From an uncultured bacterium (GTDB lineage: Bacteria > Myxococcota_A > UBA9042 > PHBI01): a DNA stretch of 64,000 nt. The notes beneath the pieces were generated by a model that saw only the letters and a list, made by a program, of their open reading frames with translations, did not search any database and had not been told where the DNA came from. Shown piece after piece: positions 2,605 to 63,645 of the stretch. Each line of letters starts with the position of its first letter. The stretch's first letter is position 1. The DNA lies in assembly GCA_938040325.1 (NCBI GenBank), contig CALHXW010000018.1:1540-65539 (forward strand), written 5' to 3'. Made by a program: the position numbers and the translations under genes.

Positions 2605-3219
2605 ATGTCCGCCATCGTCGAGCATATGGGCAAAGACACACTACGAACCGCATTCGCCACAGCCGATGCGGCACCCGCCACGAGCGCCACTGAGCAGGTC
2701 GACTTCGACACTGTCTACAGGGAGCAGCGGGGGCGTGTCTTAGCAACCGTCCGCGGTGTGATCGGTGCATCCGACGAGCTTGAGGATGTGGTCCAACAGG
2801 TCTTCATCGAGATTCATCGTTGCCTGCCACGGTTTGAGGGGCGCTCGCGCCTGTCGACCTGGGTCTACCGGATCTCTGTCAACGTGGCGCTCCAGCACTT
2901 GCGCAAGAAAAAGCGGAAGCGCTGGTTGATGCTCGGCTCCGCTGGCGACGAGGATGTCCGGATGGTGGGCGAAGCTGACCCAACCAGTCGGCTCGAAGGC
3001 CGAGCGCTGCTGCGCGAGGTCTATCGCTCCGTCAACAAGCTCCCGGACAAGAAGCGTGTTGTCTGGACGCTGCACGAGCTTCAGGGGCTAGCGCCGCAAC
3101 AGATTGCAGAAGTTCTTGAGATTCCGATGAACACGGTGCGTTCGCGCTTACTCTCAGCGAGAAACTCGCTGCAGCAGGATCTAAAACGACGAGGAATCGT
3201 CGGCGGAGGTCGCTCATGA
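2605..3219 (+). CDS. ECF (sigma-70 family group IV) RNA polymerase sigma factor
   Basis: Region 2 (VVQQVFIEIHRCLPRFEGRSRLSTWVYRISVNVALQHLRKK) and region 4 HTH (LPDKKRVVWTLHELQGLAPQQIAEVLEIPMNTVRSRL) are present, ~200 aa. Stop TGA overlaps the start of the next gene (ATGA). Confidence 0.9.
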   Translation: MSAIVEHMGKDTLRTAFATADAAPATSATEQVDFDTVYREQRGRVLATVRGVIGASDELEDVVQQVFIEIHRCLPRFEGRSRLSTWVYRISVNVALQHLRKKKRKRWLMLGSAGDEDVRMVGEADPTSRLEGRALLREVYRSVNKLPDKKRVVWTLHELQGLAPQQIAEVLEIPMNTVRSRLLSARNSLQQDLKRRGIVGGGRS

Positions 3220-4499
3220 AAGGACCCACGAACAACGAAGAGCAGCACCCGGCAGGTGCGTCGGCCGTCCCTGGTGATTCTTACGACGCACTGCTCGCGT
3301 CGCTGCGCGATGCGCTCGATCAAGAAGCTGGCCTGAGTCCGGAGCAATGGGTCGCCGTCAGGCAGGGCGTCGATGAGCACGCGTCGGTACGACCTGCCCG
3401 ACGTGGATGGGTCCTCGGTGGGCTCGTGGCGGTCGCAGCTGCGGTCGCGCTGGTCGTCGCATTCCAGCAGGCGCCCAAGACCCCCGCCATCGACGGCGGC
3501 GAGGCAGTGGCGACCACACTTGACTTGCCGCTGGCAGCACCTCAGCTCGTTCCAAGCCCTGCAACGATCGCAGGGGAACCCTTCGAGGTGGTGTCCGGAC
3601 AGACGTTGGTCGCAAAGGAGGCGCCGTTGTCACTGAGTGCCTTCGGTCGCCATGACGTTCGACTCTCGACGGGCGCCGTGCTCGACGTCGTGCGCTGGGA
3701 AGCCCAAGGCATGTCCCTGGCGCTGAAGTCAGGCGCGGTCACCTTTGATGTCAGCCGTGACAGCAACGAAGAGCCGTTTCAAGTGACGGCCGGTGGCGCC
3801 CGGGTGACGGTCCTCGGCACCATCTTTACGGTCGCATACCGAGGAGATAGTGCGGTCGAGGTGAGCGTGGCTCATGGCAGAGTGGAAGTCCAAGGCGCCG
3901 ATGGTTCCAAGCAGATCCTCACGCGGGGCAAGTCGGCGGTTGTGCCGACAAGCGTTGTGGTGATGGCGCCACCGACCGCGGCTCCAGCCTCCGATGTCGT
4001 GAGCCCGGTGGTTGCGGCCGTCGAGCCTGCACCGCGGCCGGTCGTGGTCGCCTCATCGAAGACCAAGACGACGTCGGTTCGAGCACCGGCGTCGCGCGCA
4101 CGGCGTTCAGCGAAGTCCAGCGCGAAGCGCACACGTCCGGCGGCGAAGCGTCGCGACACGGTCAAGGTCATCGAGATCGATGCGGGCGCCCAGCGAATGG
4201 AGCGAAACGCGGGTGGCGCGGCGATCGACCTCAAGCGCCACCTTGAGCCCATCGTTCATGCGATGCGCGGCAAGAAGTGTGGGCATGCGCTGCGCGAGCT
4301 GACCAAGGTGAAGCGGGCGCTGGCTCCGCGCACTTCCGCGGACATCACGTACCTGTCGGCCTGGTGCCATCGTCAGCTCGGCAACACCGCCAAGAGCAAG
4401 GCGCTCTTTGCGCGCTACGCGAAGCAGGGCGGTAAGAAATGGGCGATGCCAAAGGGCGACGACGACTTGCCCACGGCGCCGTCCGCATCCCGGCTCTGA
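3216..4499 (+). CDS. Anti-sigma factor with FecR-like periplasmic domain
   Basis: ATGA overlap with the ECF sigma gene. One TM helix (GWVLGGLVAVAAAVALVVAF). FecR-type beta domain (VSGQTLVAKEAPLSLSAFGRHDVRLSTGAVL..VTAGGARVTVLGTIFTV). Pro/Ala/Lys-rich linker and a C-terminal helical region. Confidence 0.75.
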   Translation: MKGPTNNEEQHPAGASAVPGDSYDALLASLRDALDQEAGLSPEQWVAVRQGVDEHASVRPARRGWVLGGLVAVAAAVALVVAFQQAPKTPAIDGGEAVATTLDLPLAAPQLVPSPATIAGEPFEVVSGQTLVAKEAPLSLSAFGRHDVRLSTGAVLDVVRWEAQGMSLALKSGAVTFDVSRDSNEEPFQVTAGGARVTVLGTIFTVAYRGDSAVEVSVAHGRVEVQGADGSKQILTRGKSAVVPTSVVVMAPPTAAPASDVVSPVVAAVEPAPRPVVVASSKTKTTSVRAPASRARRSAKSSAKRTRPAAKRRDTVKVIEIDAGAQRMERNAGGAAIDLKRHLEPIVHAMRGKKCGHALRELTKVKRALAPRTSADITYLSAWCHRQLGNTAKSKALFARYAKQGGKKWAMPKGDDDLPTAPSASRL

Positions 4500-59293: not shown

Positions 59294-59420
59294 GGAGCTC
59301 CTCTCTCTGGTTAGACCCAGGGCAGCCGCCTCTGGATTGTTTCGCATAAAGCGCGTCTGTTTGAACGTTGTCGCGCCAGTAGGTGTTGACTTTGGCAGAG
59401 CGATTGCTGACTAAGGAAGC

Positions 59421-59551
59421 ATGTTGATCAAACTCATACGCGCGTCAGCGGTCCTCGCTGCGGTCATCTTGAGCGCACTTTGGAGTCCGCCTGCGGCCAC
59501 TCAGTGAAGTGGTTGAAGCGCACCTAGCCTTCCGGTCGGAGGGTCCAGCAT
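59421..59551 (+). other. Orphan signal-peptide ORF joined in frame to the downstream gene through two TGA codons, plus a SECIS-like hairpin
   Basis: AGGAAG SD before ATG 59421. MLIKLIRASAVLAAVILSALWSPPAATQ, then TGA-AGT-GGT-TGA, then an open frame that continues directly into the 59652 ORF (..SAPSLPVGGSSIDFAIEQSAEAPENITWVRAGFRYGYLASKRRGS-VSID..). Hairpin ccttcc-GGTC-ggaggg at 59528-59543, whose loop sits 21-24 nt after the second TGA. Confidence 0.5.
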
Positions 59552-59651
59552 TGACTTCGCCATCGAGCAATCGGCCGAGGCCCCAGAGAACATCACGTGG
59601 GTCCGTGCGGGGTTTCGTTACGGCTACCTTGCGTCGAAGCGCCGTGGGTCG

Positions 59652-60770
59652 GTGTCCATCGATAGCGATGGTGCCGCGGTCGAGAGCGCCAGGCTTGAGC
59701 TCCGCGTCGATCACTTCTTCGGTGACGGCTGGTCGGCGTCCGCGAGCGTCCCAACCGGGCAGATAAGCGTCACGCCCGAGGGTGGCGGATTGCCTGTTCG
59801 AACGTCCGGGTTCGGCGACGCGTCCCTGGAGGTCCGCTACGACCTCGCCGAGCTCTGGGGCCGCACGGGCGGGGTCGGGCTCACGCTCAGCGGCGGCCTT
59901 GCACTGCCAACGGGGGACATTGCCAAGACGACCCCCGTGGACGCGGCACCGGTCGTGGTCTCACTCGGCACGGGCGTCTTCAACGCCTTCGCGGGCGGGG
60001 TTCTCACTTACGTTGTTGCCCATGACTGGATCCTGGTCGCTCCGATCAGCGCCCGCTTCGCCCTCGGGACCTCCTCAAGCGGCATGTTCGTCGGCCCACG
60101 CCTCAGTCTTGGGCTTGGGATGGTCTACGTGGCCTCACCCACAGTCCAGCTCGGCCTCAGCGCCAACAGCGCATGGTCGGCCCAGACGGAAAACGAAATC
60201 GAAGGCGTCCTCATCAACTCTGGCGGCACGACCATCGGCGCGCAGGCGTCGGTGAACTTCGCGCTGACCGAGCGCGTGCGTCTGCGGGTCTCAGCTGACG
60301 TGCCGTTCTTTGCAGACATGAACGGCGAGCAGCTGACAACGACCGTTGGCGTGTCCGCGGGCCTCAGCGTGCGCTTTGGCGGTGACGCTGACGACGACGA
60401 ACCAGAGGCGACTTCAGGACCGTCAACGATCGGAACGAACGATATCAGCGTCGGCGGTCAGCGCTTCGACTTGGCCGACGCCCTCGTGCCTGGCAAGTAC
60501 ACCATCGTCGACTTCTGGGCGGATTGGTGTGCGCCCTGCAAGGTGATCAGCGCACGACTAAAGGCTATCACCGACGACGATGAGCGCTTCGTCCTTCGCA
60601 AGGCAGAGGTGCCAGACTTTGAGTCGCCCGTGGCCCTGCAGCACTTGCCAGGCGGTGACCGACTGCCGGTCGTTCGTGTCTACGGCCCCACCGGAGAAAA
60701 GCTCGCCGATATTGTCGGCGGCGAGCCGAATGAGGTCCTCGCAGCCGTCATTGCCGTGCTGCCTGACTAA
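59652..60770 (+). CDS. Outer-membrane-like beta-rich domain fused to a C-terminal thioredoxin-fold domain (WCAPC). The annotated GTG start is probably not the true N-terminus.
   Basis: C-terminal thioredoxin motif FWADWCAPCKV. N-terminal ~250 aa Gly/Ser/Thr-rich with amphipathic strands. The reading frame is open and protein-like for 40 codons upstream of the GTG, back to the TGA pair (see 59421-59551). Confidence 0.65.
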   Translation: MSIDSDGAAVESARLELRVDHFFGDGWSASASVPTGQISVTPEGGGLPVRTSGFGDASLEVRYDLAELWGRTGGVGLTLSGGLALPTGDIAKTTPVDAAPVVVSLGTGVFNAFAGGVLTYVVAHDWILVAPISARFALGTSSSGMFVGPRLSLGLGMVYVASPTVQLGLSANSAWSAQTENEIEGVLINSGGTTIGAQASVNFALTERVRLRVSADVPFFADMNGEQLTTTVGVSAGLSVRFGGDADDDEPEATSGPSTIGTNDISVGGQRFDLADALVPGKYTIVDFWADWCAPCKVISARLKAITDDDERFVLRKAEVPDFESPVALQHLPGGDRLPVVRVYGPTGEKLADIVGGEPNEVLAAVIAVLPD

Positions 60771-60776
60771 CAGCTC

Positions 60777-61355
60777 TTAGCCGAAGTAGGGTGGGGCGTT
60801 GCCAGGCTTCCACTTGATGTTGCAGCCGATGCTCGGCACCTGCTCGGAGTTCACGGGTGAGTCGCTGAGCAGGGCGCTGACGGCCGCGGTTAGGTCGGCG
60901 CCTGTCACGTCAACATCGTTGCCTGGGCGTGAGGCATCAAACTGCCCCCGGTAGCAGAGCTGCCCATTGCCATCGTAGAGGAAGAAGTCGGGAGTGCACG
61001 CCGCACCGTACGCCTTCGCCACCTCTTGCGACTCGTCGAAGAGGTAGGGGAACGCGTAGCCGGCGGCCCGTCGCTCGACCGCCATCTCGGCTGGTCCGTC
61101 CTGCGGGTAGCGGTCGACGTCGTTTGAGCTGACAGCGACCACGCCGAGCCCTTGCTCCATATAGGATCGGGTCACTGCGGCGAGGACTTCCCTCAGGTGG
61201 ATAACGAACGGGCAGTGGTTGCAGATGAACGCGACCAGCAATCCGGGACGGTCGCTGTAGTCTGAAAGCGAGACCAGCGCGCCGGTCGTATCAGGCAAGG
61301 CGAAGTTTGGCGCCTGGGTGCCAAGCGCCCGCATCGTTGAAGGAGTTCGTGCCAT
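60777..61355 (-). CDS. Thioredoxin-fold thiol-disulfide oxidoreductase (AhpC/TSA-redoxin-like)
   Basis: CxxC active site in a redoxin context (LVAFICNHCPFVIHL), ~190 aa. Convergent with the Trx-fusion gene. Confidence 0.75.
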   Translation of the reverse strand: MARTPSTMRALGTQAPNFALPDTTGALVSLSDYSDRPGLLVAFICNHCPFVIHLREVLAAVTRSYMEQGLGVVAVSSNDVDRYPQDGPAEMAVERRAAGYAFPYLFDESQEVAKAYGAACTPDFFLYDGNGQLCYRGQFDASRPGNDVDVTGADLTAAVSALLSDSPVNSEQVPSIGCNIKWKPGNAPPYFG

Positions 61356-62253: not shown

Positions 62254-63645
62254 CTACGGCTGCTCGTCGAACACCGCCACCTGGACTCTGAACATGCCGT
62301 CTCCGAGGGACTCCGACCACGCGAGCGCCAACCGTCCGTCTGCGTAGCTCAGTGCCGGCCGGTACGCGCTTGGAAAGCGCCCGGTGGCGACCGTGACTGG
62401 CTGCCCTTCGAAGCCCGAAGCGTTGAGGTAGCCCAATCGGAGGTCGACATCGGCCCCGGTCCCACGAAGGTACGCAAGGGCGAACCGTCCGTCACCCACG
62501 GGCACGACAGCTGACGATGTGGTGATCGTTCCTGCGAGTTCAGGCATCGTGATGGGCTGACCAGCACCGCCATCGCTTGGCCAGGTCCTCAGTCGTAAGT
62601 TCGCGCCAACGACGGCCCCGACCACGGCGGCCTGCGACTCCGGGTCGGTCGCGACGATCGGAGCCTGAACGGCCAGCCCCTCAGCTGGCCCAGCAACCTC
62701 AAAGAGCTCGCCTACAGCACCATCTGCGCCGATCCGGGCCCCGTACGCGACGTCGACGGCTGCGTCCGGAGTGCCCAACGCGTCCTCCCAGACCACCAGC
62801 AGCTCGCCGGCGATAGCGCTGATCGACGGAAAGAGCTGCCCAACGGTCGCGTCGCTCCGTGGCACGACCGGCGTGCCGATGGGCTCGCCGAGTGTGCTGT
62901 AGCGCTGGGCAAACGCCTCGAATCCTGGCGACGTGCCCCCAGCCCGCACACCAGCGATGGCGAACCCTCCGCCCGGCGTGCAAGCGACCTTCGCCAGCCA
63001 GTGGTTGCCGTCGCGGTCGGTCTCGACGACGTTGTCGTCAGCGTCCGCTGGCGTCCCATCGGCCCCGACCCGACGAAAGCGAACGCTTAGGTTGTCTGGG
63101 AACTCGCCGTTGTCTGTGGACCAGGCGACGACAAACGAGCCGTCGTCTTGTTGGCACATCGTTGGCTCGTTGTGTCCTGCCTCCAGCACCGACAAGAGGA
63201 AGTCATCGACGGCTGGCCGCAGCGTGGTGGGCTCATAGAGGCCGAAGAAGATGCCCAGCTCGTCGCCAGCCTTTCCGGTCCACGCAATGGCAAGGTGTCC
63301 ATCAGCTCCGTAGGCAATCGCAGGCTGTACCTTGATGTCACCAAGCTGGGGTGCCGGCCCAATGATGAGCGGGCTGCCTGACAACAACGGCGGAACGAGC
63401 GGTTCGGCAGGTACAGTGTCAACCGAAGCGCTCGTGTCTTCGAGCATCGAAGTGTCATCAGCGACATCGGGGTCGGAGGTCGTGTCGGCTTCACTCGTGT
63501 CGGCTTCAATGTCTGGGGCCGCGTTCGTGTCGGCGGTCTCAGCAGGGGCGTCATCGCCGCAGGCAACAGCGGTCCACGAAAGCAAAGCAGCGACCAAGAG
63601 TCGCCGAGATCTTGCAAAACAGAACGGATGAAGATGCATGACCAC
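62254..63645 (-). CDS. Secreted lipoprotein of unknown function (463 aa)
   Basis: Signal/lipobox LLSWTAVACGDD. Asp/Thr-rich linker. Repetitive beta-rich body with several ~60-aa segments. No catalytic motif recognised. Confidence 0.45.
   Translation of the reverse strand: MVMHLHPFCFARSRRLLVAALLSWTAVACGDDAPAETADTNAAPDIEADTSEADTTSDPDVADDTSMLEDTSASVDTVPAEPLVPPLLSGSPLIIGPAPQLGDIKVQPAIAYGADGHLAIAWTGKAGDELGIFFGLYEPTTLRPAVDDFLLSVLEAGHNEPTMCQQDDGSFVVAWSTDNGEFPDNLSVRFRRVGADGTPADADDNVVETDRDGNHWLAKVACTPGGGFAIAGVRAGGTSPGFEAFAQRYSTLGEPIGTPVVPRSDATVGQLFPSISAIAGELLVVWEDALGTPDAAVDVAYGARIGADGAVGELFEVAGPAEGLAVQAPIVATDPESQAAVVGAVVGANLRLRTWPSDGGAGQPITMPELAGTITTSSAVVPVGDGRFALAYLRGTGADVDLRLGYLNASGFEGQPVTVATGRFPSAYRPALSYADGRLALAWSESLGDGMFRVQVAVFDEQP

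Follow-up and report, generated by a model that had tools for sequence, protein, structure and literature searches.

A conserved UGA-x-x-UGA motif ahead of an outer-membrane barrel and thioredoxin gene suggests an apparently unrecognised double-selenocysteine protein family in Myxococcota and soil metagenomes

Recoding of UGA as selenocysteine (Sec) with the help of a SECIS hairpin is a classical mechanism. In Escherichia coli fdhF the GGUC-type apical loop of the SECIS starts about 17-18 nt after the UGA and its G and U bases are recognised by SelB, and the corresponding hairpin of Moorella thermoacetica fdhA has been used in SelB structures. The E. coli SelB/SECIS pair tolerates altered spacing only partially, and the range of UGA-to-loop distances allowed by bSECISearch is 16-37 nt. 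Channels of the COG4313 / Phenol_MetA_deg group (Pput2725, which is PDB 4RL8, as well as SphA and TcpY) have been described as uptake channels for hydrophobic molecules, and we know of none among them with a Sec or CxxC N-terminus, a thioredoxin partner or metal-binding linkers. In the solved channel, a stretch of ~14 residues at the N-terminus is tucked into the lumen of the 12-stranded barrel from its periplasmic end (PMC4493636). Closely spaced Sec pairs of the UxxU type are known in a Prx-like thiol:disulfide oxidoreductase, in an HMA-type metal-binding protein (NF041115) and in an FmdB-family protein (PMC13188914, Table 1), and the outer-membrane barrels listed as selenoproteins are a TonB-dependent receptor of the FCYXU type (NF049945) and a GSU2204 protein of the MtrB/PioB type (NF041027) (PMC13188914).

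Here, we describe a gene at positions 59421-60770 of a 64,000-nt stretch of DNA from an uncultured member of the Myxococcota_A (contig CALHXW010000018.1; the whole stretch is called the window below), in which a signal peptide is joined in frame to a barrel-thioredoxin protein across two TGA codons. We put the probability that this interval is a single intact gene for a secreted selenoprotein at roughly 0.86, and on comparative evidence both TGAs are almost certainly read as Sec. With the known UxxU families the predicted product would share the replacement of CxxC by UxxU, two close UGAs and a likely link to redox or metal chemistry, but its motif lies on the N-terminal tail of a barrel instead of within a fold of the HMA, Prx or zinc-ribbon kind. 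Like NF049945 and NF041027, it is a candidate Sec-containing outer-membrane beta-barrel recognised by comparative genomics; those two proteins, however, belong to other barrel families, carry a single Sec according to the review table and lack thioredoxin coupling.

A Shine-Dalgarno-like AAGGAAG, read directly from the sequence (59413-59419, plus strand, as are all features of this gene), precedes an ATG at 59421, from which the full selenoprotein gene would run for 449 codons, including two Sec, to a TAA stop at 60768-60770. Its translation begins with the signal peptide MLIKLIRASAVLAAVILSALWSPPAATQ (59421-59504), directly followed by the first TGA (59505-59507), the U of the putative UxxU; the codons AGT GGT separate this TGA from the second one (59514-59516), and past the latter the frame (SAPSLPVGGSSIDF...) stays open through a GTG at 59652 to the TAA. 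The public gene call, P0001, is 372 aa long and begins only at that GTG. The ribosome-binding site, the ATG, the signal peptide and the two TGAs all lie where a preliminary description of this DNA had put them; the stretch it reported as open between the second TGA and the GTG is indeed open, but spans 45 codons rather than 40. In the frame of the gene, GC3 is raised on either side of the TGAs (0.68, 0.73 and 0.78), and the combined 41-nt motif, searched with up to two mismatches, occurs once in the window vs 0 occurrences in 100 shuffles.

Cleavage of the signal peptide probably takes place immediately ahead of the first Sec. More than 80 relatives likewise have a signal peptide in front of the first TGA, in many cases ending in A-x-A. 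A lipoprotein with Sec or Cys as the lipobox residue was considered and rejected, as the residues at -3 to -1 (ATQ, YGQ, AEA, EAG, GWT) do not, by eye, fit L-[AS]-[GA]-C. Translation by genetic code 4 or 25 can also be ruled out, because TGA is an ordinary stop in the window, where it ends 7 of the 27 long high-GC3 open reading frames (TAG ends 15 and TAA 5). TGA stops seem under-used given the 64% GC content of the window.

Downstream of the second TGA, the segment SAPSLPVGGS (59517-59546) aligns with the family consensus SNPNLPVGGS. The remainder of the product comprises a 12-stranded outer-membrane beta-barrel of the COG4313 / Phenol_MetA_deg-like type (59592-60380), an acidic disordered linker (GDADDDEPEATSG..., 60387-60437; residues 291-307, pLDDT <50) and a thioredoxin-fold domain (60438-60767) with WCAPC at 60525-60539. 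In Pfam searches, Phenol_MetA_deg (PF13557) matched residues 98-284 with 24.0 bits (cut-off 22; E = 4.8e-5), and Thioredoxin (PF00085) matched residues 359-444; PF13557 was matched by three of the four thioredoxin-fused members, with no match among the short-form relatives. AlphaFold2 was run either on the protein after the second UGA together with 9 relatives or on a Cys homologue. The post-UGA model (mean pLDDT 76) divides into a barrel at residues 26-288, the disordered acidic linker at 291-307 and a thioredoxin fold at 308-417, the barrel being 12-stranded and resembling PDB 4RL8 and the thioredoxin fold carrying a CxxC active site (WCAPC). Domain matches and fold models thus bear out the earlier view of an outer-membrane/thioredoxin fusion in need of an upstream signal peptide. 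In both models the N-terminal segment has a pLDDT of 30-40 and is not assigned a position. If cleavage precedes the first Sec, the consensus U-x-x-U-S-N-P-N-L-P-V-G-G-S would make up the first 14 mature residues; since AlphaFold2 leaves this segment unplaced, its position as a barrel "plug" is drawn by analogy with the solved channel.

The two TGAs recur at the same place in relatives. A first protein search returned only three other proteins, 32-33% identical and all called without a signal peptide. Reading upstream of the called starts gave ...AKPAYGQ-(TGA)-GG-(TGA)-ANPNLPVGGSAFDI in locus L001, ...TASGA-(TGA)-GT-(TGA)-TSPNLPVGGSAFDI in L002 and ...PASGA-(TGA)-GT-(TGA)-TSPNLPVGGSAFDI in L003/L004. 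A profile built from the barrel only (A2) added P0005-P0010, several of which had been called from the codon after the second TGA ("MNPNLPVGGS"); here L086 reads ...APAT-(TGA)-PG-(TGA)-VNPNLPVGGS and L087 ...AHAT-(TGA)-TA-(TGA)-VNPNLPVGGS. These five loci (L001, L002, L003/L004, L086 and L087) are 32-35% identical to the window protein and carry both TGA-x-x-TGA and the hairpin described below. Polyangium aurulentum, a myxobacterium in culture, encodes a short-form member at locus L209 of its complete genome (CP079217.1), MRFLALGIVALAIGWPTVSYAEA-(TGA)-GA-(TGA)-SNPNLPVGGS, in which the hairpin is also present and for which a mature N-terminal peptide of U-G-A-U-SNPNLPVGGSEVR is predicted when both TGAs are read as Sec. 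All seven loci retrieved through their proteins (the window, L001, L002, L003/L004, L086, L087 and L209) have TGA-N6-TGA at this site.

JGI metagenomes were scanned with the pattern TGH-N6-TGH-N6-CCNNNNCTNCCGGTCGGNGGNTC, in which H admits TGA, TGC or TGT at either site. At least 120 matches were obtained, 80 of which were read. Every one of the 80 loci has a signal peptide, the motif, and then [STAV]NPNLPVGGS followed by the barrel; 79 are UxxU and one is CxxU, so that in these pattern-retrieved loci the first UGA is kept in 79 of 80 and the second in 80 of 80. Counting matching sites, the second TGA is present at all 87 in the 86 loci scanned, window included, and NPNLP is conserved at the protein level across the family. 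The sole CxxU variant, L158 (620-631, minus strand), reads TGC CCT GCC TGA; it shares the hairpin and may link the Cys form to the Sec form as an intermediate.

Homologues with cysteine at both sites also exist. Two were found by profile search, P0012 (...THA|CAGCSNPNLPVARNES) and P0011 (...AEA|CSVCGCGDP, the bar following the signal peptide in each). A phmmer search with the Cys form P0012 against 1.84 billion representatives (clusters at 50% identity) yielded 482 clusters at E <= 0.001, 332 of them at E <= 1e-10. When 149 of the best 150 of these 482 clusters were sorted by start site, 12 proved to be full-length and to have CxxC-xNP(N/T/S)(L/M)P behind a signal peptide, 2 began at NPNLP, and 135 began further downstream, resembling truncated calls of UGA-containing genes. 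Similarly, the best 120 matches of the short-form profile all begin downstream of NPNLP. The Sec form is much commoner than the Cys form (about 90% of clusters), and Cys homologues are rare. P0012, P0011 and the 12 further clusters share CxxC or CxxCxC right after the signal peptide, with NPNLP behind it. Cys aligned to both UGAs is the classical Sec/Cys signature. Comparison of orthologues thus gives Sec (TGA) or Cys at both positions, as would be expected of a selenoprotein, and the candidate status first proposed for this gene is now strongly supported, both TGAs being found at the same position in all relatives next to a hairpin with compensatory changes. Two members known from protein only, P0250 ("MNPNLPVGGV") and P0256 ("MNPSLPGGGS"), would, if they are UGA forms, have a hairpin that differs at the loop or at the stem base.

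The hairpin lies at 59527-59544 and consists of a 5' arm GCCUUCC (59527-59533), a GGUC loop (59534-59537) and a 3' arm GGAGGGU (59538-59544), the first and fourth pairs of the stem being G.U. Its presence and its GGUC loop had been noted before, with a stem of 6 bp that we find to be 7 bp; the loop does occupy nucleotides +21 to +24 as first described, taking the U of the second UGA as +1, which amounts to a spacing of 17 nt from the second UGA and 26 nt from the first. Folding of a 71-nt region gave z = -0.26, and the 24-nt hairpin has an energy of -10.3 kcal/mol with z = -2.1; because folding energy is weak evidence by itself, the significance of the hairpin comes from comparison with relatives. 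An Rfam search of window positions 59300-59800, run at an E-value threshold that admits sub-gathering scores, gave chance matches only and no family.

For this comparison, 72 distinct sequences were aligned (alignment A5). The metagenome search pattern imposed four of the seven stem pairs, so the sample is conditioned on the hairpin core, but two pairs left free by the pattern are complementary in 72 of 72 sequences and occur in three Watson-Crick types. Pair 36:45 is GC in 48 sequences, UA in 12, CG in 10 and GU in 2; pair 33:48 is CG in 67 and UA in 5; neither is ever unpaired. The changes fall on third codon positions, those of the Leu and the first Gly codon for 36:45 and those of the Asn and the second Gly codon for 33:48. 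Across A5, 99.8% of cells are paired, as against at most 55% with the partners slid, and the covariation score of 0.183 (0.045 in shuffles) was reached by 0 of 500 shuffles. RNAalifold, applied to the same 72 sequences, returned exactly the 59527-59544 helix and found no second hairpin for the first UGA.

Evidence free of the search bias is provided by the seven protein-retrieved loci and by a contrast at the protein level. The residues after NPNLP are variable in Cys forms (NVRS, GARG, TARS, VTRN, VARN and others), whereas UGA forms have V-G-G-S; in the one Cys locus that was read, L088, the corresponding codons are CTT CCC GTG GCT CGA and no hairpin is found (-0.5 kcal/mol). V-G-G-S is kept only in Sec forms because its codons build the loop and the 3' arm of the hairpin. 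These codons are thus held by RNA structure only where UGAs occur, as in bacterial SECIS elements within coding regions. Conversely, the near-invariance of the hairpin sequence across the family reflects the fact that it also encodes L-P-V-G-G-S.

Compared with the fdhF and fdhA elements, the hairpin of this family is similar in being a coding-region stem-loop just 3' of a UGA, in its GGUC-type loop and in its spacing. It differs in having a short, perfect 7-bp helix in which a U.G wobble never varies and no U is bulged out, and in serving two UGAs 9 nt apart. Decoding very probably proceeds by the standard bacterial route, in which SelB carrying Sec-tRNA(Sec) would dock on the 7-bp GGUC-loop hairpin at 59527-59544 and Sec would be inserted at the UGAs at 59505 and 59514, the single hairpin acting on both from a loop 17 nt from the second and 26 nt from the first. 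One hairpin for two UGAs 9 nt apart would imply tolerance to spacing.

Sec decoding is documented in the phylum: many Myxococcota are Sec users, among them Anaeromyxobacter, Myxococcus, Corallococcus, Cystobacter, Stigmatella, Haliangium and Plesiocystis (PMC5029168 supplement; PMC1794560), which provides phylum-level support. ARAGORN found no tRNA genes in the window, and no tRNA-Sec in the window or any family locus (window plus 209 records). Its tRNA-SeC predictions were confined to five unrelated Dehalococcoidia/Chloroflexota loci, in each case ~400 nt downstream of a thioredoxin-like gene (L034 10401-10498; L037 10399-10496; L047 10397-10494; L054 10399-10496; L068 10407-10504). A scan of the window for further TGA-interrupted open reading frames gave 37 noisy candidates, none convincing as a second selenoprotein.

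These observations bear on several other ways of reading the locus. The preliminary description had offered a fresh pseudogene as its alternative, a signal-peptide-bearing outer-membrane/thioredoxin gene inactivated by two nonsense mutations, and it is true that public gene callers halt at the TGAs to give a truncated gene and that no Sec machinery is seen in the window. Both TGAs are nevertheless conserved in relatives of 32-35% identity, in the complete genome of a cultured organism and in at least 79 metagenome copies; the frame and its GC3 bias are intact on either side, the hairpin covaries, and independent assemblies exclude an assembly artefact in the relatives. Two nonsense mutations could not be conserved so widely, and the pseudogene is therefore refuted and keeps virtually no weight. 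Very improbable, too, is a division into two units, in which a short upstream open reading frame would encode a leader peptide and the hairpin would regulate or attenuate a downstream gene whose start lies behind the TGAs. Database calls often do begin at a GTG or ATG behind the second TGA, but a separate downstream barrel would then have no signal peptide, the Cys homologues are single continuous open reading frames with the same signal-CxxC-NPNLP order, and amino-acid conservation runs on across the TGAs.

The UGAs might instead be translated but not as Sec, through hairpin-stimulated near-cognate read-through with Trp or Cys or through another recoding route, given that Sec at these codons is deduced from comparative evidence. 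Against this stand the cysteines found in homologues at exactly both positions, a hairpin whose size, G-containing GGUC loop and distance from the UGA match those of bacterial SECIS elements, the existence of other UxxU selenoprotein families (PMC13188914) and the frequency of Sec decoding in Myxococcota, and we consider such read-through quite unlikely. The window copy also departs slightly from the family consensus, with SAPS in place of SNPN and a G.U instead of an A-U pair at the base of the stem, as might be seen in a relic of a genuine selenoprotein family whose host has lost Sec decoding and no longer expresses the full-length protein. A decaying gene should soon have lost one or more of its features, yet the open reading frame with its signal peptide and GC3 bias, both TGAs, the barrel, WCAPC and the hairpin (-10.3 kcal/mol) are all intact; a relic is hence unlikely, and an intact gene for a secreted double-Sec protein is the reading that we retain.

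Members of the family come in two architectures, thioredoxin-fused as in the window and short forms that extend for ~295-350 aa after UxxU. Among the 12 of 13 thioredoxin-fused genes with at least 750 nt of upstream sequence, none (0/12) has a separate thioredoxin gene upstream, whereas 49 of the 59 unfused genes with enough upstream sequence are preceded by a gene for a secreted thioredoxin protein, which ends about 60-90 nt before the first TGA of the short form. This pattern of fusion or adjacency argues that the thioredoxin works with the UxxU barrel. The Cys-form locus L088 shows the same order of thioredoxin gene and then barrel gene. Of the 49 upstream proteins, 35 combine the thioredoxin with an HMA-like GxDCxxC domain and 7 combine it with CxxCHP motifs; a representative partner matches HMA at 5.8e-10 and Thioredoxin at 1e-7, and the HMA part of a partner weakly resembles NF041115 (E = 6e-7, below cut-off). 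The repeated motif C-x2-H-x-V-P-x3-C-x2-C-H-P-[ED]-L, which replaces HMA in the partners of L088 (4998-5648), L091, L103, L107, L124 and L147, looks like a metal-binding or zinc-ribbon module.

Further upstream, about 18 loci have a MacB-type permease (FtsX + MacB_PCD) together with an ABC ATPase, and MacB-type ABC genes also lie near the UxxU gene in L002/L003. The linkers of fused forms are mostly long His/Asp-rich runs, to which L126 adds CGPDCNKPCC repeats; taking most relatives together, linkers are long and His-rich or Cys-rich, and that of the window is short, acidic and without His. Two His clusters, HHRNETL and HEHIQFGTGT, do not vary among the short forms. The window gene has unrelated neighbours, namely ChaN-like, LigT and TPR genes upstream and, downstream, a Bax1-I gene and an AhpC/TSA-like gene in convergent orientation, with no HMA, ABC or FtsX gene beside it. 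The convergent gene at 60777-61355 (minus strand) encodes an AhpC/TSA-Redoxin protein with a CNHC motif, and at 62254-63645 (minus strand) lies a gene for a 463-aa secreted protein with no Pfam match.

None of the 119 prokaryotic selenoprotein families inventoried in May 2026 (PMC13188914) corresponds to the family of the window gene, and our literature search found neither a description of it nor a published link between selenoproteins and COG4313. For the window protein and 9 family members there was no NCBIfam match to the NF041115, Prx-like or FmdB (TIGR02605) models. In NCBIfam release 20, the fused forms and the thioredoxin-fused L130 gave generic thioredoxin matches only, far below cut-offs, and four unfused short forms, P0011 and P0012 gave none; Pfam likewise returned no significant match for the short forms, P0011 and P0012, with one sub-threshold match to OMP_b-brl. 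Public names of members include "hypothetical protein [Polyangium aurulentum]", "thioredoxin domain-containing protein" and "TlpA family protein disulfide reductase, partial", and all public gene calls of UGA-form members that we saw are N-terminally truncated. While the mechanism of recoding is thus the classical one, the protein family appears unrecognised: it has the look of a new and large family, most members of which contain Sec, that occurs in Myxococcota and is common in soil metagenomes but absent from Pfam, NCBIfam and the 119-family list. Its recognition would correct many annotations, enlarge the selenoproteomes of aerobic soil Myxococcota and add a rare example of a Sec-dominant, double-Sec, secreted outer-membrane protein. 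Polyangium aurulentum offers a cultured carrier in which both function and the decoding of two UGAs by one hairpin can be studied.

As to function, the mature product would carry U-S-G-U at or near its N-terminus, then the NPNLP-type segment, the COG4313-like barrel, the acidic linker and a periplasmic thioredoxin domain with WCAPC. UxxU may act as a redox-active or soft-metal-binding diselenol on this short N-terminal segment, the counterpart of which lies folded inside the periplasmic opening of the barrel in the COG4313 structure, and the tethered or co-encoded thioredoxin would keep or cycle the pair in its reduced state. Metal handling by the family can reasonably be inferred, being favoured by the HMA domains of partner proteins, by the His- or Cys-rich linkers and by the MacB-type ABC genes in the operons of short forms; as the window copy lacks such neighbours and its linker contains no His, the suggestion derives from its relatives. 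More tentatively, and with the odds rather against it, the family could represent an envelope system of a new kind, in which the diselenol at the extreme N-terminus of a 12-stranded outer-membrane channel serves as a mobile selenol "plug" recharged by thioredoxin. Such a plug would capture or reduce soft metals or metalloids, or else hand reducing equivalents across the outer membrane, together with a periplasmic HMA-thioredoxin partner and a MacB-type ABC transporter.

Two further loci have unusual surroundings. On the minus strand of L126, a lower-GC metagenome contig, tandem thioredoxin-fused UxxU paralogues (UTMU and UGFU, with sites at 3209-3220 and 1302-1313) have linkers that mix His-rich runs and Cys-rich repeats (CGPDCNKPCCNKDKPE), and a small Cys-rich open reading frame (CCCSN...CPCC) lies just upstream of them. 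In L001 (6411-8322, minus strand) the UxxU gene adjoins a methyltransferase gene and a radical SAM/DUF3641 gene of the TIGR04167 type, for which Sec-containing members have been listed.
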